A stretch of DNA of 60,897 nucleotides, counting the filler, from Gonapodya sp. JEL0774 (Eukaryota), in NCBI GenBank assembly GCA_027604505.1. It is 7 parts of 7 records of this genome, joined end to end, with 100 filler letters (N's around TTAATTAATTAA, not from the genome) between each part and the next. Parts side by side here need not be neighbours in the genome. Positions count along the whole stretch, not along the records: positions 52,322 to 60,897 come from JADIIX010000448.1; 6 more parts are not named here. One strand, given 5' to 3'. The notes under the pieces were generated by a model that had not been told where the DNA came from, searched no databases, and saw nothing but the letters and a program-made list of their open reading frames with translations. How positions within the stretch are numbered: position 1 is the first letter of the stretch; each line of letters starts with the position of its first letter. Below are positions 3,735 to 60,897 of this stretch, in pieces. The position numbers were made by a program, and so were the translations under genes.

Positions 3735-4257
3735 TTCGTCTTTTTGATGCCGTCCCTGGCTTGATCGCTGGTTTTTGGATGATCAGATAAGGTTTGACAG
3801 ACTGGTTCAAGTTGAAGTCTCGAGGAGTGAGGATATCACAAGGACTAAGAAACCCGTATGATAGACGATCTCCGAATTTGGATTCCGATGGTAGTGTTCA
3901 CAAACTAGATCGATGGCAGTAAATTCCGACGTTTTGGTGAATTTCTGGATGATCGACGCTTTGCCTTCGCTGAGCTGCCTTCGCTGGCCCTCCGACAAAC
4001 GCTCGCTCTGCCACGCGCGCAGTCAAGGGGGGTCCAACCAAATTTATCAATACAATCAGTACATTTCTACTGGACGCTTGGACTTCGATCTGATGGGTGA
4101 AATTCACTGAAGGCCGGACCGTGTTCGCATGTACAACTGGCAGTACACTAAACAACAAAGCGCATACGCGCTGAGGCGCACGAGATCTGCGCGAGAAATA
4201 ATCGAAGTAACAAGTTACCAGACAGATACTAACAATAAGAAGAGAGTCGGTGCATTG

Positions 4258-6668
4258 TCATGCTCGTCCCGACCACTTGCCACCAGCCACCACAGCACCA
4301 CCAACTACAGCTGCCGCAACCGCCGCATACGTCCACACGCTCCATGGCCCCTGTGTCACAACCACCTCCTTCCCGTCCCGTCCGACCAGGTTGAAATCCC
4401 GGAGGTCAACCGAGCGAAGATCTAAATACAGCGATGTCGCGCTGTACGGGTACATAGTGGAGATCTTGCCATCTGTACGGCCGGTGGGATTGTACTGGAT
4501 GATGGTCAGATCACAGTACAGTATGAGAAACAACTCCCGACTGGATTGAGAAAAGCAAATACGAACCCAGCTCGTCCCCGAACCCCCACACCACACCGTC
4601 TTCTGCAAATCTTTCCATATCCGTTGCGTGAACTCAATTTGCTTCTCTTCTTTGGGGTCCACAACTTTCAGGTTCCGCCGAATGCACTCCTTGATGACCG
4701 CAAGCGCGTAGTCCACTTGAACTTCAATCATGTACACGGCGGAGATGTGACCGATCCCAGAATTGGGTCCGAGGCTCATGAAGAAGCTGGGGAAAGTGTG
4801 GATCCCTTTTATTTGCCAAAGTTCCCTGTAGTCTTGTCGAGAGTACCACAGAGACTCACTTTGGGAAACCGCTCGTCATTGCCGTCTTGTATGTCATGGC
4901 CAGATCTTTTTCTCCCGTGAGCTGGAACCACTTATCTCCACGTTCTATGCCTCCACGGCCGTAGATTTTGACTGGAGAAGCCCCAAAGGAGACTTCGAAC
5001 CCTGAAAGGAGAAGGAGCAGTTTTCAACCCGCTGTCCATTACTATGTGCACATGTCTCGAGCAACTGATTCACACTCACCGGTAGCAGCAATAATCACAT
5101 CGTGATTCCGGTGTTTCTTCTGCGGTCCTACCTCATGGCCGTTTCCCTGCCCATTCGCCACACCATTCACGGCACCCTTCTTGCTCTCCGTCCATATCCC
5201 CTTCTCATCCACTTCCACGATGGCCTCGTCGTACACCAACTCCACGTTCGGCCTCTGCAGATCCTTGAGGTATGTCACCTGCGGTAAGATCCTCTTGGTT
5301 CCCACGTCGTAACTTGGAGTCAGCGCCTTCCGCAGCCGCTCGTCCGCTATTTCTTTTTTGTAGTAGTTGAGAATCATTCGGGAGACGAAACGGTTCATGA
5401 AGCTTCCAGTGAGGAGGAAGGGGAAGCTCAGGTCTGCCGAGAGGAATATGAGGATGCGGTAGAAGAGTGTGAGACCGGGTACATGACGGAAGAGGAATTT
5501 GGTGAGCCACGAGAACCGGCGCATGTCTTTGGGTGGGTGATAGCCGGGGGTTCGCTGGATTTGTTGGTCTTAGGTGAGACGAGACTACAACAGCAAGCGC
5601 GATAGCATTTGCGATAGGTTCATGCCAACACAACATACCTGATATACTGTCAACTTCCCCACCGAAGGAGCAATCGTCTCCACAATCTGCACCCCACTCG
5701 CACCAGTTCCAATCACCGCAACATCTTTTCCTGCAACATCTACGTCTTTCTTGGGCCAATTGCCCGAGTGAGCAATCACGCCAGAAAATCTTTCCCAGCC
5801 GGGGTAGGAGGGGAGTTTAGGGTAGTGGAGACCGCCACCGCCAAAGACGAGGAAGTGGTGGCGAGAAGTTGTCCGTGTGGGTGCATGTGGTGGGGTGTTG
5901 ACTGTATCGTGAACCAAGAAGTGCTGTACAGCGGGAGTTCGGCAACATGTTTTGGCAAATGTAGCAACCGGCCAACGCCGTTGTCCACCAGTTTGTAATG
6001 TACTTACGAGCTCCCACATCCCTTGCTCCTCCAACCATCTAGCCTCCACCAGCTGATGCCCGAATCGAATGCGTTCAAGTAAGTTGTATTTTTTGGCCAC
6101 GTTCTCGCAGTAGCGTTGAATTTCGTCGCCGGGAGAGTGAGTCGTTGACCAGTCTAGTAGTCACACGTGCAAGTGGAACTTGTTCCCGTTAGAGCTTTAT
6201 CCCGACAGATTTAAGACTCTGAAGCGAGCCACGAATTGTGAAAACTGACCAGGATTTCTCTCGAAGGAGAAGGAATACAAGTGTGATGGGACATCACAAG
6301 CAACGCCTGCATTCGAGGTACATTCGTATTACACTCTTGTGAGCACTATAGTTCAACAAGCCCACGACCCCGAGAACGCATTGGCACTTACCTGGATATC
6401 TGTTAACCCACCACGTCCCACCCACTCCGGTTTCCTTTTCGTAGATGGTGAAGTTGCGAGACTTGAGTTGCTTCTGTGCTTGGACACCAACGACGATACC
6501 CGACATTCTAGAAGATCACAAGGAAGGACATTATTCATTCGTTTACCCAAATAAAAGGATGAACATTTGACAGAGTTCATCCCGATTCTCAATCGTTAGG
6601 AACACGCCGAGAACGCACCCAGCACCTATGACCCCGATGCTCGGATCAAACTTGGCGGCTTTGGACAT
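4258..6668 (-). CDS. Flavin-dependent monooxygenase (Baeyer-Villiger/FMO family), multi-exon, C-terminal membrane anchor
   Basis: Exons give IGVIGAG-MSG (FAD Rossmann), GGTWWVNRYPG, CDVPSHLYSFS, the BVMO fingerprint FSGVIAHSGNWP, VIGTGASG (NADP), KRIL, DVIIAATG and GPNS. Confidence 0.93.
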
Positions 6669-8133: not shown

Positions 8134-8400
8134 GCGAGAATTCCGTGCGACGTGCTCGTCGCTTGTCGCCCGGACAACGGGGCAGTACGCACTAATGAGG
8201 GGCTAGAAAGGGATTTTATGGAGGGAGAGAGAGGAATAGAGTGTCGGAGAGAGGTTCACTCCAACCTCTAGCTTCTTTAATGTTCAGCGTCCAATATATA
8301 TCCCGTATACGTGCTCAGGTGCACGAGATCTATGTGAGAAATAATCGAACTAACAAGTTACCAGACAGATACAATCAATAACGAGAGAGTTGGTGCATTG

Positions 8401-8679
8401 TCATGCTCGTCCCGACCACTTCGCACCAGCCACCACTGCCCCACCAACTACGGCTGCCGCAACCGCCGCATACGTCCACACGCTCCATGGCCCCTGTGTC
8501 ACAACCACCTCTTTCCCGTCCCGTCCGACAAGGTTGAAATCCCGGAGGTCAACGGAGCGAAGATCTAAATACAGCGATGTCGCGTTGTAAGGGTACATAG
8601 TGGAGATCTTGCCATCTGTACGGCCGGTGGGATTGTACTGGATGATGGTCAGATCACAGTACAGTATGAGAAACAACTC
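8401..8679 (-). CDS. 3' end (last exon) of a second, near-identical BVMO paralog, truncated by contig end
   Basis: 8300-8679 nearly duplicates 4165-4539, including the last intron end, the last exon (YNPTGRTDGKISTMYPY...KWSGRA) and the 3'UTR. Confidence 0.85.
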   Translation of the reverse strand, partial: ELFLILYCDLTIIQYNPTGRTDGKISTMYPYNATSLYLDLRSVDLRDFNLVGRDGKEVVVTQGPWSVWTYAAVAAAVVGGAVVAGAKWSGRA

Positions 8680-15595: not shown

Positions 15596-16534
15596 CTACT
15601 CATCCTCCGCGGTCCTCAGCTTCGCCCCCCCATTGATCACCCTGACGCCCAACTGCGCCGCCCGCTCGACAATCTTGACCCTGGTCCTTGCCGACACCGC
15701 GTGGGCGATCTCGGCGCAGTAGGACCGGTTGTGCATGAGCAAGAGGTCGATTTCTTGTGGGGATGTGACGGAGAATTTGTGGAAGCCGTTGGGGAGGAGG
15801 TGGCGGGTTTTGGAGTTGGAAGCGTAACTTTGGGGTTGGAGAGGGGGGGGGTTGGTAGGGGGGTTGCGCGGTGCGGGGTGGCGGTGAACGGTGGGGATGA
15901 GGAGGTGGAGGTGAAGTTAAGCGAAGACGAAGAGTGCGGCGTGGGGAAGGTGACGAATGGGAACACAGGACATGAACGTATTGAACGTACCCGATCTTGG
16001 GCAGAGGGATGTTGCCCCTGAAGCGACGGCGGGCGCGGTTATCGATACCGCGGGGACGGCGCCATGAGGTCTGTTTTGGGAGGGAGAGACGTGAAGGGGT
16101 GTGAAATGTTTGAGGGTGTTTACGAGACGGTACGGTACGGTAGCAAAACATGGATTTGGCAATTCCACGTAGCCGACAAAGAGTGACAGTGATGGATGGT
16201 CGGTAGTGCGTCGGTCGCAAGCACGGTGTCCCGAGTGTGTCCGTCGGACAAACAGACGGGTCCCAGCGCAATGGTTCGTTGCGCATGCCACCGTTACCAG
16301 CCGAATTGAGCAATTTGCGAACCAATATCCTCCCGTTCTGAGCACTATTCTGTCGAATGTCTCTTGAACACACTGCAGTCCATGTGCCGTAACCTCTTCC
16401 AACCCCAGTGCCGCCACTCTCCGTCGCATTAAACAACTTACAGGAACCCTCATGAACCGGTCCGAGTGGAACCGGTTGAACTTGCCGGTCCTCTTCTTGA
16501 CGATTTTCGTCTTGTTGATGGAAGTGACGGTCAT
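15596..16534 (-). CDS. RPL32: 60S ribosomal protein L32 (eL32), 3 coding exons
   Basis: [27 protein letters not shown] / [23 protein letters not shown] / [10 protein letters not shown]...[17 protein letters not shown]...AKLRTAEDE*. Confidence 0.95.
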
Positions 16535-26230: not shown

Positions 26231-29200
26231 ACATCTGCTCTCCTAGGTGGTTGCGCGGACATCCGTAACAAAGGTGGCATGATAATAGCTCCGCCAAGTT
26301 CTTTCCATGTATCCGGAGAGAGTGAAGCACGTTGCTACTCGTGGCTTGAAGGAAAGTCACCATGGGATCGTGAGCTTGTCGAAATGCCCGACTGGCTTGT
26401 GCGGGCACTTCGCGAAAGCGGAGGTCGAGCTGCTCACCACCATGGTGGTCAGCAGACACAGGTGCAGTTGGAAGGACCGGACATTGCTCCAACGCCAGAT
26501 GTGGTGAAGGAGTTTATTGGGCAGAACTTCGCGATTTTACCGGCCTACATTGGTGGGACAAAATGGCTGGGCGAAGGACTGGGTTATGCTATTTCGACCA
26601 CCGTGCAAGACTGTTTCTTCAAGATGGCTGTGCACCAGAGCAACCGGCAGTATTTGTATGTGAACGCTGGGGGGGAGATGACGCGTCGGTGCCATGACGG
26701 GGGGTGCCGCGATAAGATGTGGGGCCAGCGCAAAGTGCCCATCTCCGTGCTCCAGGCGCTTCGGTCGTTATTTCCGGTAGCTGGGGGTGGTAGTAGCCAG
26801 GAGGTGGAGATTGTGACTCTGCTGCCGTCTGGGAAGCGGGCGAGCAAGGCGCGGGGTGGAGTTGCTCCAACGACAATGGACGTGGCTGAGCTGAAGCGGG
26901 CAATTGGGGCGGGCATCTTTGATGCGCAGCCGGTGCTAAACCGGGCACTGAAAGCGCCTCAGGGCACGGCGTGGGACCAGGGTGGTGACAGTTGCCTGAT
27001 TCCGCGTTGTGTGCTTTGTCTCGTGGATAAGAGCCATGCCCACAAGCACGTAGGTGAAAGTTTTCTGCGCGTGAACTGTGACATGACTGTAGATGCCGTG
27101 TGCCGCGAGATGGGATCATTGCGTCTTCAAGGGCCTGTTGCAAGATCCGTGCAGGGTGCATTGCTGAACGTTTCTGTGCTCGTGCAGGAAGACACGAAGG
27201 AGTACGAGTCACTTCGGGACCACGTTGTGGCGTATGCACTGACGCGCGGGTTGCGGCGTGAGAAAGGGACGGGATGGGTGTACCGGCCTGTCGGGGGATT
27301 GAGCTATGCACTCGAGCGGTGGCTGGCGCCCGAGGACTATGTCAACGCAGTGTTTTGGGGTGACCGGGAGCAGGCTTTCACGAAGCGGGCCAACTACTTT
27401 GACAACCTTGTGAGCTATCTCTGCAAGGCTAACCACGAATGTTTTCCGTTTCTGGAGCGGAGCATGCGTTTCTATGGCTTCCGCAACGGAGTCTACGATA
27501 TCGAGAGTTGCGAGTTCACGCCTGCTTCAGAGGTGGCCAGCGATGTGGTGGTACGCAAGTACATTGAAGCCGAGTTCACGGGGTCTGTGGAGACGCCGGA
27601 GTTTGATTCGATATTGCGAACTCAGGGGTACAGTGAAGAGATGCAGACGTTCATGGACGCCTGCCTCGGCCGGCTTTTTGGCATCCGCGACAGCCTTGGA
27701 TTCATGGTGTACATCTATGGGAAGCCAGGAACAGGCAAATCGACTATCCTAAACGTCATGGCGGAGCTTTTCGTTGACGTCGGAGAATTCACGGAAAACT
27801 TTGAGAAAACATTTGGACTTCAACAATGGGCATCAAGCGAAATCGTCATGGGGGACGACGTACCAGCAAATATGGCGGCGCTACTCCCTCAGACGACATT
27901 GCAGTCAATGATCACTGGCGGCAGGGTGTCGATACCTGCCAAAAACAAGCAAGCAAGGGTGGAAAGGTGGAAGATTCCCATAATAATGGCGGGGAATCAC
28001 CCTTTCGGCTACAAGGACACTACAGGGAGTGTAGAGGGCGGTGCGATGGCGCGGAGGGTGCTGGTATTTCATTTTGGCACCGCTGTAGTCAAGGATACAG
28101 CCCTGTTGGACCGTATCATTGGGAGGGAGATTCCTGCCATTTTGCATCGCACGGCGATTGCATACAAACGTCTGCTGAAGGAAAGTGAGTACTGTGACGG
28201 AAATGGCGTATTGCGGAAAAGGGATATCTGGAATATTTGTCCCCCTGAACTACTGGAGTTCAGGGTGGCAGCAAAAATGGAGTCGGATCCTATCTACGCC
28301 TTTCTCAAGGAAAGGTGCGGATATGTTGATGGCGCCTGCAGTGTGACAATCCGGGCGCTTGAAGAATCATATGAGATGCACACGGGAGTAAGAGGCATTG
28401 GTGGTTTCACGAAAGAGGCTCTCCTGCAAGCAGATGAAAGATACGTCGTCAAGGCTCTTATGGTGTGCAAGTCCTGTCAGAGGCCACATAAAAAAGGATG
28501 TTGTGAGTCGTACAGGAGGGAGGAGAGGAGCACTGCCAGAGGTGTTCTGGGGATGACAATGTTGAACGACGGTCAACTCATGACTATTGAGTCCGGAGCA
28601 ACGCGGGCCAATGTGCGCAGGTTCTATGACGGACAGAATATGAGGAAACATGGGTATGGTGGATGGAGTTTGTTGGACTGCCAGCCATCCGCACCTCACA
28701 CTGTCACATCACTCGCTGGACGGAACGGCGCATGTGCTGTGTGGAAGGTTGAGAGCCGAATGTGTCTGCCTCCTGGAAGGCGTGATATTGGCTGGATGAC
28801 AAACAAAGAGGCATCTATTCTCGCTGGTGACGTGGCAGAAGCCCAGGTCAAACACTACCTGTGCAGTGGGGTGGAAATTGACTGGCGCAGAGTTATGAGG
28901 GAGTGTATGGATGTCACTTTGGAGACTCAGCGAGAGATGAACGCATACTTTACAGAGCGTGAGGCTTCTGTGCGGGATGCTGTGCATCTGATCAAGGGTC
29001 TGACTAACGTCATATCCTGGGTATCCCCTTCTGAAAACTTCAGGATAGAGACATCAAACCATGGACCAGTTACCGGCCGGGTTGATTTCTTTGGTACCTG
29101 CGACAGGACGTTCTACATCCTTGAGACGAAGTTCTCTATAAGTGACGTGTCCCCTGGTAACCGGCACTGTCGGCAGATGGAGCTGTATTCGCGCTGGGGT

Positions 29201-29293
29201 TTATCCCAACCAGGGGTAGAGAAATGCATTATGGTATTTTACAATATTCGGACGGGAACTTTAGAAATGGGGAGTTTTCATATGAAGAATTGA
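26231..29293 (+). CDS. Intronless primase-helicase-nuclease: Prim-Pol C-terminal part, Zn fingers, D5-type SF3 helicase, Cys-rich Zn module, PD-(D/E)XK nuclease; 5' truncated by contig start
   Basis: Frame is open from 26231 (DIRNKGGMIIAPPS). Contains CFFKMAVHQSN...CHDGGC finger, GFRNGVYD (D5_N), Walker A GKPGTGKST, Walker B IVMGDD, motif C MAGN, ARR, CKSC..H..GCC, then GRVDFF...ILETK...QMELY. Confidence 0.88.
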   Translation, partial: TSALLGGCADIRNKGGMIIAPPSSFHVSGESEARCYSWLEGKSPWDRELVEMPDWLVRALRESGGRAAHHHGGQQTQVQLEGPDIAPTPDVVKEFIGQNFAILPAYIGGTKWLGEGLGYAISTTVQDCFFKMAVHQSNRQYLYVNAGGEMTRRCHDGGCRDKMWGQRKVPISVLQALRSLFPVAGGGSSQEVEIVTLLPSGKRASKARGGVAPTTMDVAELKRAIGAGIFDAQPVLNRALKAPQGTAWDQGGDSCLIPRCVLCLVDKSHAHKHVGESFLRVNCDMTVDAVCREMGSLRLQGPVARSVQGALLNVSVLVQEDTKEYESLRDHVVAYALTRGLRREKGTGWVYRPVGGLSYALERWLAPEDYVNAVFWGDREQAFTKRANYFDNLVSYLCKANHECFPFLERSMRFYGFRNGVYDIESCEFTPASEVASDVVVRKYIEAEFTGSVETPEFDSILRTQGYSEEMQTFMDACLGRLFGIRDSLGFMVYIYGKPGTGKSTILNVMAELFVDVGEFTENFEKTFGLQQWASSEIVMGDDVPANMAALLPQTTLQSMITGGRVSIPAKNKQARVERWKIPIIMAGNHPFGYKDTTGSVEGGAMARRVLVFHFGTAVVKDTALLDRIIGREIPAILHRTAIAYKRLLKESEYCDGNGVLRKRDIWNICPPELLEFRVAAKMESDPIYAFLKERCGYVDGACSVTIRALEESYEMHTGVRGIGGFTKEALLQADERYVVKALMVCKSCQRPHKKGCCESYRREERSTARGVLGMTMLNDGQLMTIESGATRANVRRFYDGQNMRKHGYGGWSLLDCQPSAPHTVTSLAGRNGACAVWKVESRMCLPPGRRDIGWMTNKEASILAGDVAEAQVKHYLCSGVEIDWRRVMRECMDVTLETQREMNAYFTEREASVRDAVHLIKGLTNVISWVSPSENFRIETSNHGPVTGRVDFFGTCDRTFYILETKFSISDVSPGNRHCRQMELYSRWGLSQPGVEKCIMVFYNIRTGTLEMGSFHMKN

Positions 29294-29500
29294 ACTTCAG
29301 CGAAACATTTGTAGAATGACTAAAACTCCAAATCGGATTGATTCAGAATCACATCGAAAGAAAAACTGATCCCAGAGAACAGATGCGATTGATTGGTAAT
29401 CGCGAGGATCCATCCCATTAGGAGATTATAAAATGAATCCTTCCATACCCTTCTCCCACAACTTTCTCAAACTTTTATTTTCTGTTCGCTTCCTCCCATC

Positions 29501-32500
29501 ATGACGAACAAGGAACAACTCTCAAAGTACTGGGAACTAGGCTGGATAGCCTTCCCTATCTCGCTCACCTGGAATGCGCAGCGCGAGAAGAAGGAGCTAC
29601 AGGCTCCAAAAGGATGGCAGAATCTCGATATCGAAGCGGCCAAGGCCCTTCCACTCAGGTCCGCGATCGCCATTCAGACTGGCTCTGCATCAGGAATCAT
29701 CGTCCTGGACATTGACGATGTCGACGGGTGGCAGCGCTTTCTCGACGATAAGGGTAGGGAAGCTCCTGAAACCGTCACCGCGCGTTCTCAGAGCGGCGGT
29801 CTTCACTACTACATGGAGTGGACCGACTCAATTGCAGATCTCAAATCGACATCTGCTCTCTTAGGTGGTTGTGCGGACATCCGTAACAAAGGTGGCATGA
29901 TAATAGCTCCACCAAGTTCTTTCCACGTATCCGGAGAGAGTGAAGCGCGTTGCTACTCGTGGCTTGAAGGAAAGTCACCATGGGATCGTGAGCTTGTCGA
30001 AGTGCCCGACTGGCTTGTGCGGGCACTTCGCGAAAGCGGAGGTCGAGCTGCTCACCACCATGGTGGTCAGCAGACACAGTTGCAGTTGGAAGGACCGGAC
30101 ATTGTTCCAACGCCAGATGTGGTGAAGGAGTTTATTGGGCAGAACTTTGCGATTTTACCGCCCTACGTTGGTGGGACTAAATGGCTGGGCGAAGGATTGG
30201 GTTATGCTATTTCGACCACCGTGCAAGACTGTTTCTTCAAGATGGCTGTGCACCAGAGCAATCGGCAGTATCTATACGTGAACGCTGGCGGAGAGATGAC
30301 GCGTCGGTGCCATGACGGGGAGTGCCGCGATAAGTTGTGGGGCCAGCGCAAAGTGCCCAGCAATGTGATGCAGGTCATTGAAGAACTATTTCCTTCCCAC
30401 AACTGGGAGAATACGCTGGACGATGAGGAGCTCACAGGAAAGAGCAGGAGTGAGTTGGCGTGTCAATCCGGTGGAGTTCAACAGCGCTGCACAGGGACTG
30501 TCGAAATGCGGACGACCCCTCTGGAGGTGCAGAAACTTATCGCCAAAGCGTACGGTATGGAGATGGAGAGTGTTGGAAGGACCAAGCTTGCAACGAGCGG
30601 CAAGGGGTACATAGTTGCGACAAACCAGCGTTTCTGCCCATTCGCTGGGGCTTCCCACGACCGCGGCATGCAATACATCTTCGTCGGCACGAAAGGTGAT
30701 ATGACGCGACGGTGTCAGGCGGCTGAGTGTAGAGAGAGTCGGCGTGGAAAGGGGGGTTGTCCAAAGAAGGTGCCGCCGGCTACAATGCAGACGTTGAGAT
30801 TGCTATTTCCTGAAGATATGAAGGCACCCACAGAGAGCAAGGTTGATGGCGAGCTATCGTCGTCACCTGCCATGGACGACGATATCGTCGGAGTGATTAC
30901 ATCGAATATTGCGAGCGCACAGCCATCACTCAATCGCGCATTGGGGATCGCATCTGGGACCAACTGGTCGCACTTGAGCGGCGAGCTTATCCCGCATTGC
31001 CTTCAGTGCCTCGTGGATAACACCCACCTGCACGAATGCGTCGGTCAAAGTCGCCTGAGAATCTGCGCCGCTGACAAGAGCGTGGTAGCAACTTGCCAAA
31101 CACTCCCTAACACAAGGCTTTACAACAAATCGACCAGCGACTGCGTCTTCTTTGCTCTAAATCTGGTGAAAATCACGATTCAGGAAGATACGAGTCAACA
31201 TGTGGCTCTGCGCGATCACATTCTCACTTTCGCGAAAACGCGCGGATTACGGCGCGAGAAGGGAACTGGATTCGTCTTCCAGCCGACCAACGATTTGTCG
31301 TACGCCCCTAGTCGTTGGCTGCCGGTGGAGCAGTTTGTCAATGAGGTCATGGTTCTACCTGAGCTCCAGAAATTGATGACGAGCAAGCCCGGACTGTACC
31401 GGGATCTCGTTGCGCTCGTGAAAAATGAGCGCGACGACGACTTCCCATTTTTAGAGGTAGATCGGTGCCTCATCGGATTCCGCAACGGCGTGTTCAATGT
31501 GGAGACGTGTGAATTCACCATGGCTGTGGATGTGCCCAATGAATGGGTCGCGCGGATCTATTTGGACAAGGTATTTACCGCCTCGACCGAAACCCCACTT
31601 TTTGACAGTATCCTTGAAATGCAACAATGGGGACAAGACGTGAAGGACTTCTTCTATATGTGCCTTGGCCGCACTTTGAGTCTGCGTGACAATTGGCAGT
31701 TCATCTTGCTCCTTCGCGGGGTCAGTGGGACTGGAAAATCAACCATTATCAACATATGGAAAAAGTTTTTCAGCAATATAGGTACCTTCAGCAAAACAAC
31801 GAGCTCGAATTTCAGCCTTGCGGCGTGGTACGACAAGGAGATCGTCATTTCAGATGAATTGCCCAGGGATATGAAGACCGCTCTCGGAGAACAGATCCTG
31901 AAATCGATGGCGTCCAACGGTGAAGTGGAGATTGAGCCAAAGCACCAAACGGGCTTCTCTGTGGAATTCAGAGTGCCTGCCGCCTGGGCGACAAATCACG
32001 GTCTGAACTACGTCGATGCCAATGGGGAGATCGCGAGACGGTTTTTGACCTTCATGTTCTTGTTCGCAATACCCCCCGGGTCTGGGAATGCGAACCTCGA
32101 CGCTCAAATCATTGAGGGCGAACTCCCCGCGTTGTTAAAGCGATGCGCTGTCGCGTACAAAGAGGCTCTCGAACGCTACTCACCGTCCAACAACGGTGGC
32201 AGGGGGAGATTGATTTGGGATTTTGCCCCCCCAACGCTCCAGGGATGGCGAGACCAAGCACGAGCTAGCAACGACTCTATGTTTGAGTTTCTTCGTGAGC
32301 ACTGCGAGTATGCTATAGGCGAGAGGATGTCCGTCCACGACCTCAAGGTTGGTTTTGAGGAGCGCATGGGTAGTCCTTTCCCGATGCGAGGTGGGGTCAA
32401 GAGGATAGTTGAACTGGATCCGCGTTACACGGAAACACGTGTCAACGCGTGCAGCACCTGCGACTCCATCGCTAGTGGAGGGAAGTGTTGTGAGGCGTAT

Positions 32501-32554
32501 GATAAGGCCAGTAGAAAGAAAATACCGTCAGTGTGTAACTTAAAATTCAAATAA
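29501..32554 (+). CDS. Intronless bifunctional primase-polymerase (Prim-Pol) fused to Zn fingers and a D5-type SF3 helicase (1017 aa)
   Basis: Prim-Pol motifs GWIAFPI, IQTG..GIIVLDIDD, SQSGGLHYY and DIRNKGGMIIAPPS. Two C-x6-H...C-x4-C fingers. GFRNGVFN, Walker A GVSGTGKST, Walker B IVISDE, motif C WATN, ARRF, and C-terminal CSTC...KCC. Confidence 0.93.
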   Translation: MTNKEQLSKYWELGWIAFPISLTWNAQREKKELQAPKGWQNLDIEAAKALPLRSAIAIQTGSASGIIVLDIDDVDGWQRFLDDKGREAPETVTARSQSGGLHYYMEWTDSIADLKSTSALLGGCADIRNKGGMIIAPPSSFHVSGESEARCYSWLEGKSPWDRELVEVPDWLVRALRESGGRAAHHHGGQQTQLQLEGPDIVPTPDVVKEFIGQNFAILPPYVGGTKWLGEGLGYAISTTVQDCFFKMAVHQSNRQYLYVNAGGEMTRRCHDGECRDKLWGQRKVPSNVMQVIEELFPSHNWENTLDDEELTGKSRSELACQSGGVQQRCTGTVEMRTTPLEVQKLIAKAYGMEMESVGRTKLATSGKGYIVATNQRFCPFAGASHDRGMQYIFVGTKGDMTRRCQAAECRESRRGKGGCPKKVPPATMQTLRLLFPEDMKAPTESKVDGELSSSPAMDDDIVGVITSNIASAQPSLNRALGIASGTNWSHLSGELIPHCLQCLVDNTHLHECVGQSRLRICAADKSVVATCQTLPNTRLYNKSTSDCVFFALNLVKITIQEDTSQHVALRDHILTFAKTRGLRREKGTGFVFQPTNDLSYAPSRWLPVEQFVNEVMVLPELQKLMTSKPGLYRDLVALVKNERDDDFPFLEVDRCLIGFRNGVFNVETCEFTMAVDVPNEWVARIYLDKVFTASTETPLFDSILEMQQWGQDVKDFFYMCLGRTLSLRDNWQFILLLRGVSGTGKSTIINIWKKFFSNIGTFSKTTSSNFSLAAWYDKEIVISDELPRDMKTALGEQILKSMASNGEVEIEPKHQTGFSVEFRVPAAWATNHGLNYVDANGEIARRFLTFMFLFAIPPGSGNANLDAQIIEGELPALLKRCAVAYKEALERYSPSNNGGRGRLIWDFAPPTLQGWRDQARASNDSMFEFLREHCEYAIGERMSVHDLKVGFEERMGSPFPMRGGVKRIVELDPRYTETRVNACSTCDSIASGGKCCEAYDKASRKKIPSVCNLKFK

Positions 32555-52321: not shown

Positions 52322-52441
52322 TGATCCCGGCTCTCGCAGATCCTACCGCCAAGTCCCCCCCAGAAGTCATCGTTGCTCCCTGGTTGGTCGGCGGAGCGGG
52401 CGCGCGAGAGCCTCGGAGCAGATCGAGGCACCAGTCCACAT
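52322..52441. repeat. Left arm of a ~120-bp inverted repeat at the ends of contig 7
   Basis: Reverse complement of 60777-60897 with about 4 differences. Confidence 0.95.
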
Positions 52442-53459
52442 CCATGGGCGAGGGCCGCCGATGCGGTGCCATCCTCCCCATGCCCAACGCCAAGTGGCTC
52501 CCCGTCCCCCCAGGACCCCCGGCACCCTCCGCAGCCCTGGCAGCACCGGCACCACCGGCACCACTGCCCCCACCGCCACCACCAGCACCACCAGCACCAC
52601 TACCCCCACCGCCACCACCGCCATCCCCTGCAACCCCCGCAAGCAACCTCGTAAGGGAGTCCCCTTTAGGCGTTGAGGGGGGTGCACGAGTCCCCGGGGC
52701 CAGTCCCGCCGTCCGGTCAAGGTCCATCGGGGAGGGAGTCAGACCAGGAATATCTGACTCCGGCTCCGACCCCAGCGAATCCGGCTCCTTCCTTTCGCTC
52801 CCACGTTGCCTCTCCCTCCACTCCTTCGCTCTCCTTCGCCGGCGGGATCGTCCGGGATTCGGACCATACACAACCGTTTCCATCTGCTCGTCCAACCCCA
52901 CAACCACCTCCGCGACCCAGTCCAGTGTCTCCAAGATCGCTTGAAGTGGCGTTTCCGGCTCATGTGCACCAGAATCAACTTCTTGCGGAGGTGGTGGTTT
53001 GGGGATGGGAGGTGGTGGGAGAGGGTGAGCTTCCACCGGACCTGCCTCAATCAGGTGGAAGGTGGGAGGAAGAGGTTTGGGGCGTGGGGTGTATTGTGAG
53101 GGGTCGCTGTGGAAGAGGATGGACAGCGAGTGGACGAGGGGCGGTGGGGTGGGAGAAGGGAGCGGTGGCTCGGGAGGGTTTGATGGGGGGGGAGGGGTCG
53201 ATGGCGGTCGAGGGGGCGATGGCGGGGGGGCCGGAGTCGGCAATGGCGATGGAGCGGGCGATGGCGGTGGAGGGGTCGGTGGCCGGGGAGGGGGCGATCG
53301 CGGGGGGGTTGGGGCGGCCGCTGGCGGGAGGGTCGGAGTAGCCGCTGGCCGGGGTGATCGGGGTGATCGCGGGCATTGACGGGAGAGTGGCAATGCGTGC
53401 CAACGCTCCCGCCGGTTGTTCGAGACGCCGTTTGGGGACTGACAATGTGAAAGCGGCAA
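52322..53459 (-). mobile_element. GC-rich Pro/Gly-rich open frame running off the contig end, probably part of a repeated element
   Basis: Frame is open for >370 codons into the gap, and its distal 120 bp are duplicated at the other contig end. No catalytic domain recognised. Confidence 0.4.
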
Positions 53460-53462
53460 AGG

Positions 53463-54047
53463 TCACCGTTGACAAAGGTGAGACAAATTGCACAACGGAG
53501 CTGAATAGACTCTGTCTCCACTCTCCCGCATGAATCTCGCTGTGCTGTTACATGTGCATAGCATTGTCTTCTGCTGTTTCCCTAACTCTGCAGAGTCGCC
53601 GACACAAGCCTGCCCATCTGCCCAACGTGTAATGTACGTACCGGTCAGGTGACCGTCAAGGCCGTCTGGTTTTTTCGGCCCAATGGCCCTCCTCCATTGC
53701 TTGCAGCGTCCCAAGTAGGCCGCTTGGGACGTTTTGAACCAATTGATGTCCGTCAAGTCCCCTTCCGCTGCTCCCCTGGCCACCCCGATAGCGAGGAAAC
53801 GGCGGAGAGTTCGCACGTCTTCCGCGGTGGTCTCAACGACCTGGGGGTCCAAATGTGCCTTGTAATACGCTTTCCCCATTACGCTCCCCGCTCGTGAAAG
53901 TCCTGCACGCGCCCATTCTTTGTCGCGCCGTTGTGCTTTCGTTTCGCGGATTTGTTGGAGACGATTGAAATGGACGTCGCCCATGACTTTTTCGTTCGCG
54001 TTCTCGATTTGGAGTAAGGCGGACGCTTCCAGTTTCTCTCCCCCCAA
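53463..54047 (-). pseudogene. Degenerate GIY-YIG-like nuclease ORF
   Basis: TGTYITRWADGQACVGDSAELGKQ resembles the G-x-Y-x9-11-Y-V-G-x-S-x-x-L-x-x-R motif with Y>C and R>Q changes. Confidence 0.35.
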
Positions 54048-57000
54048 TAAATGAAAGAGAGGCTCCCGCGATTCAGGCCCAACCCAAATTCCCGGTTTGG
54101 AACAACTTCATTTCACTTGACAGTTTTACTTTGCATTTGAAAACCAGGTTACTCTGTGCTTCAATCGCGCTCAAAATCAACGTTCTGCATGTTCCATCGT
54201 TCCACTCCCCCAAAACGGACTCTACATGGTGATACAGTGAGACCCAGAGAGAACAGCACTTTGCATTCCTTCTTTCGGAATATTCACACTCAGACTTTCT
54301 AGTAGATGCTCTTTCATTGTTAAGAGTCAAAAACGGTGCAAACGGTCCCCGGTCCCCAGATGGGATTCCCCGACTGCCAGTCTTGGGTCTCAAAGTCTCG
54401 CGGCCATATCAGCCGCGTTAACCTGCACATGGACTTTATTTCTGAGTCACAGGTCGATTGCTGATACTGATTTTGTATTGTGTTCATTTTCACGACGAAT
54501 ACTCCTTTCCTATTCTGCTCATTCCTAAGAGGGCGCTTTGGTAATCCATCACCAACTCGAAACTCGCGGTTCTTTTCCAAAACTCCAATTTCGCAGCAGC
54601 AGGAGAACGGCCCATAGTCAAGCGCTTGCCGTGTCACAAGAAAACAATAAGGCAAACCACATCGCAACAAGAGGTAAGACAGGAACACAGACGATCGACC
54701 CCGGGCAAACAGTCTTATAAAATTAAATAGTTCTTCCGAGAACATAATTTGGAGATGCATTCTATCGGTGTAATAGCGCTGCACACAAACTGGACGAGCG
54801 AACTGCCCATCTCATTCGGTGTAGCTGCACCTTACGTTTCGGGAGCATGCAAACTCCACGTCCTTTCGTTTCCTACACGATACCTCAAAATGAAAAGCGA
54901 TCTGTCAATTAGAGCTTTCGAAATCGTAGAGCTCTATTAGCCAACAATCTCCGCGACAAATGAGTGGAGTTCACAAGTCAGGAGTCGGTCATTCAAAGAG
55001 TCCCCATCCGAGCGTGCGTCTAATGTGTTGAAAATATTGTACAGACAATTTTTCATTTATTTTTGTCGCGATTGCCAGTTTTTGCTCTGTCGTTCCAAAG
55101 TACGTATGCAACATCACCCCTGAACACACACTGAGCGAAACAGAGCCAAGCAAGGGGGCGGGGGGGTTTCCACAAGTATCCCGTTTCTCTCTAGCTGCAC
55201 CAAATGCTTCCTCGCACAAGCCACTGATGGTCACCAGAGAACTTTTTGTTTTTCTTGTGGGCATCAGTATGTGAGCCCTGCACGCCACTCGCCGATTGAG
55301 ACAGAAAATGGTCATCAGACGGAACACAAGTAAAGAAAGATCCTATTCATTGGAATCATCAAGGTTATGGGGCTCCGCCGGTCATCTGGTATCTGTTTCG
55401 GACAGACATATTTAGTGTGATCCATTCCACATGAGGGCTTGGCCGCGGCACGGATCCTACCAGGCTGGTGCACCGTCGACGCAAACACAACGGCAAAGGA
55501 ACATTATCTTCGGATTTGGTGCTTTCACAAATGAAATTTACATAGGCTCCGTCATGGTTGTTATTTGTTATTACGACAACGCATTTCGAACATATTTCGA
55601 CGCTCAAGGAAACGTACATAGAACCTCCACTTGTTTGAATTACAACGCAAGCATTTGTTAAATCGATCAACAATGGGCGCGGAGTTATCAGGTGGCCCTT
55701 CCTTAATGGAGAAAATAACTTGAGATGCTTGCACGAGATGTGAAGGTGGGCTTATGTCGATTTCGAGTCAAGTAACAAGTTACTCGAGTTGAGTCAAGCA
55801 CGATTTGAGCGAGCTCAATCAAGCCACAAGTCGAGTTAGGGGGAGCCGCTTGTTCGAATCTCGACTCCAGTCGAGCATCACTCCTGTATGGAAAATGCTC
55901 CTCGTACATAGGCAAGTTGAATTCGAGTCGATTCCGATTCCAAAATACACCATTTGCTCTAAAGTATAAAACATCGAAATGATCTATGCTGTGGGGATTC
56001 GGCTCGCAAACAGGGGAAAGAGGACGAAGAAAGACAGAGAGCAGAGAAGGTGATATCCTAGCATCCAGTCAACACAAAAATCAAAGGACTTAATCTGTTA
56101 CGAGGCAATCCTCGCAGCAATCCTACGTCAGGTTGTTCACATTGTCTGGGGTCTCAACCGTCGCCCAACGTAAAACAGAGTGTCCATTTGCAGCCGCAAT
56201 GAGACCGACCATTGTGCAATTTTTCCTTGCGTCTGGTACTGGGACTCTCACCCGCCCGTCATCTCCGCTGATGAACGCACCTTGACACCGTCCAACAGCC
56301 ATTTCCTCAGGATGGCAGGCTTGTGCTTCTTGTGATTACCGAGTTCATTCGATAAACATTGTTCCTTTGCCCTTCGGTCACCGATTCGTCGATAAATTCG
56401 GGGTATTTTGCGTATAACGGGAGTTGGCGGTGGAGACGTGACTAAAACAGCACTGCAGCCAACCCCGTGTCGGCAAACTTCGAGTACATGGACACCTGTA
56501 ATGCTAATTTGAGTGGATTTCTCTAGAGTAGAATACATGTAGATACTCGTGATCTCGCTTGTATGGAGGATGCAATGGCGCTTTGAGACCGTCTAATTCA
56601 TGCAAGTGTTTCATAAGCACTATATCACGGTCTCGCTGACCAATTTGGAACCAGAACATGGTCTTGTGTTACATTTCAGTGCAGGACAGCGAAAGAGAAG
56701 AGAAGTCCCATAAGCTACCCGCAGGTAGAAGTTGCTGGCCCACCATTTGTGCAGCACGCTCGTGGCTGCGTCGTGATCAAAGATGTAACACATAACTGGG
56801 GTGAGAAGTTTGAGGGGTCTGGATACAGCAACTCAATGTAACGCACAGTTCAGAGCAAGTTTGGTTGATCGCTGACTTTCAGCACAGGCGATTTAATGTA
56901 GCCATTAGAAACTTCAAGAAACCCCGAGAAGTGCCGTTTCAAAGCTGTTCCAGCGCAACCAAGGACGCCTGGAGCATCAGGATAGCGGGAAATCATTTTC

Positions 57001-58209
57001 TTATATATTTATGTTGTCGTTCGGGTCTTGGAATATTGTTCATTGCTCTACTCGGTCGTGAAATCGGTTTTGTCTGCATAATTTTATGGGCGACCCTGGT
57101 ACCTGTGGCCACGCTGAACAAAATGGCGGCTCGTCCAGCTCCAGGAAGTTCCCCAACTTCATACAACTCGAACTCAAAATCGACAACCAACGACCGCAAA
57201 CCCGCAAAGGTCAGCGGAAACTTCATTTACTTGAAAGATACGCGCATTGTGACTCCTCTTCCATGGTCCTTGTCTCTAAATTCGCGTTCTTCTTCGCCGC
57301 CGCTCATCAAGTTGAACAGCCTTCTCCGCCTTCTCCGCAGAGCAGCGGCCCAAATTCCATCGCCAAGACTCTTTCAATAGATGAAATGGACTGTGGTGAG
57401 TCTCTGTCAACGCCCGAGGCTGTTGGGAAGACGGAAGCCTGTTGTGGGTGACGGTGTCAGCAGGACGCACTTCTTGCTTCCGCCGAGATAAGTACTGACT
57501 ATTCCGACTTGCTCTCCCAACATTTGCCTCCCTTTCATGCCAGATATATATTGACTGCGCACGTGAAAGATCTTCCAACATGGCGTTGACGTCTCAAGTA
57601 GCTTCGTAACTCGACAACTTGTAACCAAGATCTCTGCGAGTATGAATATCTAACGTAAGTCTCTTTGATGTTCTGCAATTGTGAGCGTGAGTTTGAAACC
57701 CCATATGCTATTGTTGCGCCTCTGGTCGTATCGGTACCGCGAACATCGAACTGACTCAACCGTCCATACATGACCTTCATAAAATGACAAGACACAGACT
57801 GTAAGGTAACATCCTTGCGTGCTCCACTCGCATTACCTTTCTTCGTTGATGCATAGTCCTACATCTGAATATAATCATTCGCAGAACGCATCAAGCAAGA
57901 GCACCAAACACAACATCCGATCCAACCCTCCACTCGAGAAAACGTTGGACAAGGATTTGATTTTGTGTTGTTGTATTCATCCTTGCTCGGTTGGTTGTTA
58001 ACTGTTAACAACATCCCTTGAAGGCCTCGCAATAATCTCTGGTTCTCGGGCTCGGTCCACAACGCCTCTCCGCCTCTTGATCAGCACGAAATAAGCCCAA
58101 CCATCGAATCTCGGACGAAGTGTGAGTACATTAATTAGATCTGATCCAGGCACACAAATTCAACGTGCAATTGTTCCAACGGATGCTATCTCTCCGCACA
58201 CCACTACAG

Positions 58210-58411
58210 CTACCGCGAGGTCTCCAACCCAGCTTTTGGTCCAAGATCCTGCAGTTCGTCTCGATTAGGAACTCGCACTTAACGGTCAAGAGAGCCGGTA
58301 CCGCGGCAGAGGTTGCTTTGTCGTAACACCGCGGGGCTCCGAACGGACGCGACTGCAGGGAGGAGGTCAATGGGTTTGGGAGCACCTGGAAAGCGGGACC
58401 CAGTTGATGAG
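58210..58411 (+). ncRNA. Structured RNA repeat, copy 1 (unknown family)
   Basis: Nested stems aggtctccaaccca/tgggtttgggagcacct, cctgcagt/actgcagg, cgtc/gacg, gga/tcc, ctcgc/gcggg, cggt/gccg and gcggcagag/ctttgtcgt. Flanked by CAG and GTACGT. Confidence 0.65.
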
Positions 58412-58637
58412 GTACGTCCATGGCCCAGCGTACAGACATTGGGTCTTGGTCTCACATCATTGCTGTTCTCCGTTCTCCAAGGATCCTCGAGGATCGTCTA
58501 GAATGGATACAATACAAAGACAACAAGATAGATGGCTGTTGGCGCGAGCACAGCGATGCTTGGGTGAGTCGAGTCCCACCGTTTCACTCCTGATTGTGTG
58601 TATTGAAATTGCAATGTTTGTCTCCTTGTTGATACAG

Positions 58638-58830
58638 GCTCGCACTCAGGCCCTCTCGCCGAATCCTCGAGGCGCGTCTCGATTAGGAACCTGTGTTTTA
58701 CGGCCAAGCGAGCCGGTACCGCGGCGGGGGTTGCTCCGTCGTGCCACCGCGGGTATCCGAACGGACGTGACCAAAGGGACGAGGATCAAGGGTTCTGGGA
58801 GGGCCCGTGAGGAACATTCTAGTAATAAAG
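58638..58830 (+). ncRNA. Structured RNA repeat, copy 2 (unknown family)
   Basis: Stems cgcgtc/gacgtg, gga/tcc, acctgtg/cgcgggt, cggc/gccg and gcggcgggg/ctccgtcgt. Flanked by CAG and GTACGG. Confidence 0.65.
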
Positions 58831-59031
58831 GTACGGACACAATTCAAGCTCTCATTGAGACTGCAGTGTTCACGAACTCTCAACGTGATTGGCCTCCCAG
58901 GTTTTACGCTCGAGAGCAGCACGGCTGAGAGACACTCTATTTCTGTACACACTCTGCTGCTTGGGTAGGTACTTCAGTTCAGTTGCGTCCGGCTTTTCCC
59001 GTTGTCATTTAAGTCACTTTTGTATCCTCAG

Positions 59032-59223
59032 GCTCGTGCTTATGCCCTGGCCGCCGAATCCTTTGGTCCGCCACGAATAAGATCCTGCGTTTGACAGTCA
59101 AGCGAGCTGGTACCGCTACGGGGGAAGCTCCGTCGCAACACCGCGGGTGTCTGAACGGACGGACCAGATGGACAAGGTCACGGGGCATCAAGAGGGCCCT
59201 TGAAGGGCTTATTGTACTCGAAG
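59032..59223 (+). ncRNA. Structured RNA repeat, copy 3 (unknown family)
   Basis: Stems atgccc/gggcat, tggcc/ggtca, tggtccg/cggacca, aga/tct, cctgcg/cgcggg, cagt/gctg and gctacgggg/ctccgtcgc. Flanked by CAG and GTAAGG. Confidence 0.65.
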
Positions 59224-60776
59224 GTAAGGTTTCGCGATCGCCCACCTTTGGACCTTTCAACCGTGCAAGCGTACGCATTGAAGTTATTTCGCTACAACAG
59301 TTTGTCTGCACTTGAAGACGCCAACTTAAAAGCCGAAATCCAAGGTGGTGTGGAGATGAGAGTGGCTGTCATGGAAGTTGGGTGGTTTTGATCAAACATG
59401 CTGCAGGTACGTTTCGAAGATTTGCTTCGGAAACCGCAACTTGTGATAATCATTTGCCCGGCCGGGTTCTTTGTGAACTAATCGCTGCTGACTTTGATCG
59501 GTGGCTTGCTGATCACCTTGATGTAGATTCAAATGGGTAGGTTGTGGTTCCGTTTAGAGTATTTTTCATGATTTTTCCACCCCCACAGGGCCTCATCAGT
59601 AATTTTTTTGGAGTGATATTTTCAAAATCCTGTGTATTGTTGGACGGTAGATCGCCTTCAATGTGGGAAACCTGAATCTCCAATCATCCAATGACCCACT
59701 ATTCCCCCAGACCTCGTGAATATATTTCCAGATATGGAGTTGTTTCAATTTGTCAACAATGATGTGTATTCTTTTATGTAAAGAATACAAATGCAATTAC
59801 GATATCTTTAGTTACTCGTAACTTCTCTCCTCGACTTGCAAGTACCGGCTAGTTGATCACCGATCTCCACACGGATCTTATTTTCTACATTTGCATCTCC
59901 GCACCGAAGGAGAGAGGCTATCGCAGTTGCTGGTAAGTTTGCACTTTTGGGGTGTTGTAAGAAGAACCTGCTCCAAGATGCCAAGTGAGGTGAGATGGCC
60001 TCCAAGAAGAGGCTTGGGAACAGCGGTTCGGTATCCTCATCAAGAGGTTTGGGAAGGAGACATAATTCCCTAAACAGCCACGAGACACGTGAGTGCAGTA
60101 GAGGGTGGACCCGCAGATCCTCCACACGAGGAGTACGACCGCCATTGAGTGCGGGGGCGGCTGGTGGAGCTTGATCCGCCAACACAGCTATCATATTTAG
60201 TAGCGGTGTCTTTTTGTCAACAACTGACGTGTTGGTAAGGTTTAAAATGAATTTTGCTGTATTAAGTTGGGCCAGTCATGATCGTATTGGGAAACTGTAC
60301 ATACCAGCAGGATTTCGGAGAAGTTCGCATACAAGCACACTTCCCTTTGTTGTCCGAACAACCTCATTTAAACCAGAGGGACCTCCAGCAACTGCTCCAT
60401 GAACAAGGGTTGGGGCCAGATCCAGAACAATTTTATTTGAGCGAGACCGGCGGCCTTGCATACTGCGGGCCTTCAAATGCGAGTCTTGCCAGTCCAGGAA
60501 TTGGAGTGGGGGAACGATTGCATGGTTTTTCCCTGGATAGATCGAAGGCCCGGACATTAAGATCTGTAGGGCAATGTTTCGCGCTGGTGGGTGCCTAATG
60601 AAGTTCCAAGGATTCGGAAACTCTGTCGCCAATAGTACCCTGCAGGACCACATCATAAGCCTTGGATGTGTGGCCGATCACGTGAGACTTGCAGCACTCA
60701 CGACCGAATATCATCCCAGATATCACACATTTGCATAATGACACGCGATCCGTACTCATTCACCCACATACCCTGA

Positions 60777-60897
60777 ATGTGGACTGGTGCCTCGATCTGC
60801 TCCCAGGCTCTCACGCGCCCGCTCCGCCGACCAACCAGGGAGCAACGATGACTTCTGGGGGGGGACTTGGCGGTAGGATCTGCGAGAGCCGGGATCG
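60777..60897. repeat. Right arm of the ~120-bp inverted repeat at the ends of contig 7
   Basis: Reverse complement of 52322-52441. Confidence 0.95.

Follow-up and report, generated by a model that had tools for sequence, protein, structure and literature searches.

The window analysed here, a stretch of 60,897 nt, consists of seven pieces of about 8.6 kb each joined by N spacers, and the structured region described below lies on the last piece, at 52322-60897. Between 8680 and 52321 the same spacer (N run, TTAATTAATTAA, N run) occurs six times, which indicates that the window is a concatenation of contigs of similar length. Gene order across the pieces is therefore meaningless and genes located further left are not neighbours of the modules at 58210..59223. 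The source genome is eukaryotic and has short GT-AG introns.

Several other features were recognised in the window. A ribosomal protein L32 gene with three exons and donors GTAAGT and GTACGT lies on the - strand at 15599-16534. For its last exon the match is 92 bits to a chain that we take, from its entry code, to be that of Toxoplasma, 85-88 bits to plant and animal chains and at most 77 bits to ascomycete chains. The source is thus not clearly a fungus of the Dikarya, and might be an early-branching fungus or a protist. Two long intronless tandem ORFs (1004 and 1017 aa) at 26279-32554 both carry DUF5906 and have a 511-bp stretch in common (96%); the second one has an N-terminal Prim-Pol domain. 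The pair has the look of a mobile or endogenous viral element of the primase-helicase kind. A direct repeat of 376 bp with 94% identity occupies 4161-4536 and 8304-8679. The contig carrying the structured region has the same 126-bp repeat at both ends, inverted and 96% identical (52323-52447 and 60771-60896), its left-end copy lying within a proline-rich open frame without Pfam match. A homologue search with the neighbouring ORF 53466-54107 found no longer homologue. Five long ORFs have no identical entry in the protein collection searched.

Three cores and their predicted fold

Three cores of 93 nt are found on the + strand of this contig, with start-to-start spacings of 418 and 394 nt. Their positions and those of their predicted elements are as follows.

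58257..58349, + strand: core 1, with AUUA at 58264-58267, hairpin A at 58283-58297, GUACC at 58298-58302, hairpin B at 58303-58324 and GAA at 58341-58343
58675..58767, + strand: core 2, with AUUA at 58682-58685, hairpin A at 58701-58715, hairpin B at 58721-58742 and GAA at 58759-58761
59069..59161, + strand: core 3, with AAUA at 59076-59079, hairpin A at 59095-59109, hairpin B at 59115-59136 and GAA at 59153-59155

The cores align without gaps at pairwise identities of 83, 73 and 80%, and RNAalifold returns for them the same fold that an earlier note on this DNA had drawn for three diverged copies of about 93 nt. The consensus energy is -35.1 kcal/mol on the + strand and -19.9 on the - strand. 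No column shuffle out of 200, with conservation kept, reaches the core consensus energy (z -3.5, and z -6.3 when 14-nt flanks are included). When each 136-nt copy is folded by itself, its energy is not out of the ordinary compared to shuffles (z -1.5 to -1.7), and the exon-like blocks that hold the cores give z values of -1.2, -1.9 and -2.5. The predicted fold shared on the + strand comprises a loop-E-like A-N-U-A/G-A-A internal loop, a three-way junction and two hairpins, with loops CAAG(A/C)GA in hairpin A and GUUG, GUUG and GAAG in hairpin B. G-U pairs, described before as frequent on this strand, number 5, 5 and 3 in the stems of copies 1-3.

Some details of the fold need qualification. 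Hairpin A is predicted in copies 1 and 2 (pair probability 0.65 and 0.94) but not in copy 3 (0.04), where, when this copy is folded alone, the bases preceding the hairpin pair with its loop. The corresponding YUU/AAG match is present in all three copies and could act as a switch or form a small pseudoknot. Hairpin B holds in all three cores, with one mismatch in copy 3. The invariant GUACC and the NNCAC linker of the earlier drawing are both present, but the GU of the first pairs with the AC of the second in the three copies (probability 0.63-0.90); they are thus not plain linkers and the junction is tighter than first drawn.

The standard loop E motif has a bulged G, according to PMC6633198. 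In all three copies A-X-U-A is opposite G-A-A between two helices whose flanking pairs have a probability of 0.65-0.99, so that the signature proposed earlier is there in sequence, but the bulge base is U, U and A in copies 1-3 and the bulged G is absent. A non-G bulge has precedent: the loop E variant of PSTVd is reported to carry an extrahelical C in place of the G (PMC6633198) and to tolerate substitutions within the loop (PMC5823408). The internal loop of the cores fits this PSTVd type of loop E/sarcin-ricin motif, a 4x3 internal loop between helices, and may adopt the S-turn geometry. Unlike PSTVd, the RNA is here genomic and has no viroid match, and loop E itself is a motif, not a family. 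Such loops are described as known interaction sites (PMC6633198).

Two resemblances of the invariant run of the cores were set aside. Its 10-mer CGGTACCGCG recurs at 57732-57741, inside an upstream intron-like span, likely by chance; a fourth copy is not detected at that site by the covariance model. The run may also have an antisense match to helix 18 of small-subunit rRNA. This pairing was treated as chance, the run being already paired in the predicted fold.

Selection on pairing and coding potential

The strongest signal comes from the kind of substitution: variable columns are transitions at 16/17 paired positions and at 2/12 unpaired positions (Fisher P 3e-5, three copies), a count that is biased toward the fold, like that of the pairs, by the derivation of the consensus structure from the same three paralogues. 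The three double compensatory changes listed in the earlier note are all present, at columns 26/98, 42/54 and 66/77; taken alone, as many are reached in 18/500 shuffles, which is borderline. A less circular test takes the structure from one copy and redistributes the substitutions of another copy randomly, with base and CpG class kept. Under this CpG-aware null, the number of broken pairs is lower than expected in 5/6 pairings (P 0.001-0.04; P 0.21 for the sixth) and double changes alone are significant in 1/6, the six pairings being drawn from three paralogues and hence not independent. Decay of CpG faking compensation was rejected, no CpG depletion being found (observed/expected 0.91-0.98).

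The distribution of conservation differs along the modules. Between units, the cores align at z 15-20 and the introns and spacer exons do not align (z <2). The long basal stem was described as differing in sequence between copies and still pairing, and it does: the identity of its arms from copy to copy is 35-51%, the best partner of every 5' arm is in the three rows the 3' arm of the same copy, and this pairing beats shuffled arms (z -2.5 to -3.1). For arm 2, the longer 5' arm of copy 1 is a slightly better partner than its own.

Long stems with different sequences and pairing kept would also suit a polycistronic small-RNA precursor, in which RNase III would cut the lower stems to release three different small RNAs while the tip would be a processing signal. 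MicroRNAs provide the layout, clusters of exon-borne hairpins in spliced hosts being known. However, the best 21-nt windows of the stems, although 17-19/21 paired, are interrupted by large loops with an asymmetry of at least 5 nt, and conservation peaks at the tip and not in the stem, the opposite of usual microRNA families where the stem is conserved over the tip. We regard this precursor as improbable.

The copies could instead be a repeat that codes for protein on the - strand, or duplicates in decay whose pairing is chance. As previously noted, no + frame stays free of stops through all the cores, whereas one - frame does, and by eye a 9-codon stretch read in one + frame shows silent changes only between copies 1 and 3. 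Against these hints, variable core columns are distributed 8/8/13 by codon position, with no clear three-base period, and none of the six frames has a better ratio of silent to replacement codon differences than 12/35. In copy 2 the open - frame meets a stop 6 codons ahead of the core with no AG between, so that it cannot be entered by splicing there, and the - strand has no donor words in 57600-59600. The codon-type conservation on the minus strand that the earlier note had singled out as speaking against a structured RNA is thus not found in the cores, and there is no CpG depletion that could mimic compensation in decaying duplicates. These alternatives are already largely refuted and we leave them very little weight.

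The region displays copies, a common pairing pattern, pair-sparing substitutions, in-register GT/AG words and no shared reading frame. Judged from these sequence features, the three exon-sized copies are a real, selected RNA fold without a known family.

Exon-like blocks and the host transcript

Each core is the tip of a predicted rod, about 170-190 nt long, which occupies the whole of an exon-like block bounded by AG and GT. This exon-sized rod between splice signals is new relative to the earlier note. The rod begins at the first bases of the block and leaves a tail of 15-26 nt, which brings the block ends close, and the donor is positioned 62, 63 and 62 nt after the core end. The blocks alternate with intron-like spacers and shorter spacer exons.

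57396..59800, + strand: putative multi-intron host transcript, ends uncertain, with further donors at 57396, 57655, 57687, 57801, 59407 and 59537
58122-58209 (88 nt), 58412-58481 (70 nt) and 58564-58637 (74 nt), + strand: intron-like spacers 1-3, from splice words
58210..58411, + strand: exon-like block E1, 202 nt, acceptor CAG ending at 58209 and donor GTACGT at 58412; predicted rod with conserved tip
58482..58563, + strand: putative spacer exon S1, 82 nt, ending in TGCTTGG followed by donor GTGAGT
58638..58830, + strand: exon-like block E2, 193 nt, acceptor CAG ending at 58637 and donor GTACGG at 58831; predicted rod from the first bases
58831-58900 (70 nt), 58965-59031 (67 nt) and 59224-59300 (77 nt), + strand: intron-like spacers 4-6, from splice words
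58901..58964, + strand: putative spacer exon S2, 64 nt, ending in TGCTTGG followed by donor GTAGGT
59032..59223, + strand: exon-like block E3, 192 nt, acceptor CAG ending at 59031 and donor GTAAGG at 59224; predicted rod from the first bases

S1 and S2 cannot be aligned as wholes, and neither can the paralogous introns. Between 57600 and 59600 there are 11 donor words on the + strand and 0 on the - strand (mean 2.9 and maximum 8 in 300 shuffles), the eight words counted having been picked after the region had been inspected; the same interval holds 7 intron-like spans compared to a shuffle mean of 1.2 and a maximum of 4. The same words occur 14 times sense and 18 times antisense in four control gene regions. 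Donor-word counts alone consequently do not fix the strand, and we infer splicing from the arrangement of the words. Transcription of the + strand and splicing at the listed sites are both probable on this reading. A further intron-like span of 120 nt at 59407-59526 contains one C-box-like word and two CTGA words, and has no Rfam snoRNA match.

The coding capacity of this host appears poor. A Pfam search with 30 frames of the contig gave no match at E<0.05. E1 has stop codons in all three + frames while E2 and E3 have one open frame each, and the open runs of 108-193 codons obtained across inclusion patterns pass through the paralogous cores in different frames. Skipping all three blocks leaves one ATG frame of 114 codons. 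Its coding score of -0.14 is close to the non-coding mean of -0.13 and below all 25 coding chunks, on a rough scale that rises with GC and for which 2/14 training pieces were probably out of frame. This frame needs a weak donor and possibly an intronic ATG, and its pieces have no Pfam match. No inclusion pattern thus seems to yield a convincing protein from the host region 57396..59800.

These data bear on the possibility that the blocks are cis-acting poison exons, in which a protein would bind the structure and switch exon inclusion in a coding host. The precedent is P5SM in the plant TFIIIA pre-mRNA, a structured cassette exon of 175 nt whose neighbouring introns are short (PMC3378873). The stops of E1 in all frames and the 114-codon frame of the all-skip product would suit such a role. 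However, that frame scores as non-coding with the defects mentioned, a single poison exon would suffice, and the frames that remain open in E2 and E3 do not fit. We hold this explanation to be clearly improbable. As with P5SM, which works by binding a protein, the predicted folded element would fill an exon between short introns; P5SM is described as occurring once, within a coding gene, and as a homologue of 5S rRNA, whereas here there are three copies and no coding host was found. The Rfam search of the window gave no match to 5S rRNA or P5SM.

Another reading keeps the tip as the working part and is a narrower form of the explanation that we favour below: each structured exon would be released as its own circle of about 195 nt, the spacer exons being joined, the skipped exon remaining in the lariat and then being back-spliced. 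It uses every signal that is kept. It explains why splice sites are retained on neutral spacer exons between the modules, and the rod starting at the first exon bases, with its 15-26-nt tail, would place the ends to be joined close together. The modules have kept their own splice sites as well, as back-splicing driven by the lariat needs, and this route, which favours longer exons, was demonstrated in fission yeast (mrps16), according to PMC4479058. As for mrps16, the route would be open to an internal exon of medium size flanked by short introns; unlike here, mrps16 is described as a coding gene. The same signals, however, serve plain linear splicing, the folds lose 3-6 kcal/mol of stability when closed into circles, and occlusion of donors by structure, which would favour skipping, was checked across the three blocks and is not conserved. 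Circle formation is therefore rather unlikely in our view. A nuclear gene making three viroid-like-shaped loop-E circles of about 195 nt, genome-encoded, selected for their fold and with throw-away spacer exons, has the same modest chance. If true, selection would act here on a structured circular RNA as the product of a gene, which would be categorically new, and the modules would bear on whether cellular circular RNAs have evolved functions.

Known families and the role of the modules

A covariance-model search of the whole window against Rfam 15 gave 0 matches at gathering score. With E-value limits of 5-10 each search returned one weak match, the best with E 0.19 and all far below threshold. 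No clean match to an existing family was thus obtained in the Rfam check that the earlier note had proposed, and with none of 200 shuffles reaching the consensus energy its claim of a functional, structured + strand RNA outside Rfam is supported. One of the weak matches, SNORD46 on the - strand (18 bits versus 40), was discarded. C/D or H/ACA snoRNAs were rejected as inspection of the alignments by eye found no box common to the three copies, and a tRNA-derived element was dismissed with 0 genes detected by ARAGORN.

The covariance model built from the copies, R1, finds in the window only its three source copies (125-135 bits), the next match having 11 bits. Exact-match pattern scans returned 6 and 4 loci in viral contigs, 100 in metagenome contigs and 1 in prokaryote genomes; rescored with R1, the 100 metagenome loci reach at most 18.4 bits and the other 11 at most 8 bits, and all 111 are chance. 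Exact patterns may let diverged relatives escape, and the collections scanned were viral, metagenomic and prokaryotic, while relatives are expected in eukaryote genomes. BLASTN against phages gave no match. Six 16-nt core words had no occurrence in the literature searched, and no description of the motif was found among titles and abstract starts, while supplements of fungal RNA screens could list it. The fungal structured-RNA screen of PMC8216456 is presented as covering Ascomycota only.

A new tandem self-cleaving ribozyme, similar to a retrozyme, would be compatible with the compact junction, the invariant unpaired bases and the spacing of about 400 nt. There is nevertheless no Rfam match of any kind, including hammerhead, hairpin, HDV-like, twister, pistol and hatchet ribozymes. 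Core words of small ribozymes were looked for by eye in the cores and are absent, hammerhead words included, and a lone GUC before the hairpin A loop is missing in copy 2. The spacers, unalignable and carrying splice words, are unlike those of a replicating monomer. A ribozyme appears very improbable. Among the functions listed in the earlier note, no ribozyme feature was found and translation control has no coding frame adjoining the cores, while a protein-binding module would rank as the most likely of the three.

Non-coding snoRNA hosts and polycistronic clusters have many short introns, neutral exons keeping only their splice sites, and repeated paralogous RNAs each of which must be cut out alone. 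Here, unlike in those hosts, the conserved RNA is inside the exon-like blocks and no C/D or H/ACA boxes are common to the three. The modules also resemble the S domain of SRP RNA, in which a long stem with irregularities ends in a junction bearing two hairpins. SRP RNA was rejected, as there is no symmetric loop for SRP54 binding (helix 8), no GNRA tetraloop and no Rfam SRP match. The modules would function most like a protein-binding structured exon, yet outside P5SM, snoRNA, SRP and known ribozymes.

The retention of sequence at the tip, of pairing in the stem and of splice words in between points to a spliced non-coding host with three duplicated, paralogous rod modules whose conserved tip likely binds one protein or complex. 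This is our preferred explanation, held with middling confidence. The unit of intron, module, intron and spacer was likely duplicated twice, which would give three binding sites per transcript. The tip has its sequence conserved down to the unpaired bases, as expected of a surface that a partner recognises, and protein binding is its likely role. The lower stem, keeping pairing only, would be a scaffold that projects the tip outwards and shields it, and the introns and spacer exons keep their splice words only. The modules could then work in trans, as a multivalent decoy or scaffold, whether still within the spliced RNA or once each is excised.

The correspondence of exon and module in such a host would invert the usual design of snoRNA hosts. 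Since its three copies are kept although the DNA between them can no longer be aligned, and since it has no Rfam family, the motif is a strong candidate for a new structured RNA class, in a group of organisms, the intron-rich microbial eukaryotes, whose structured non-coding RNA classes are little sampled.
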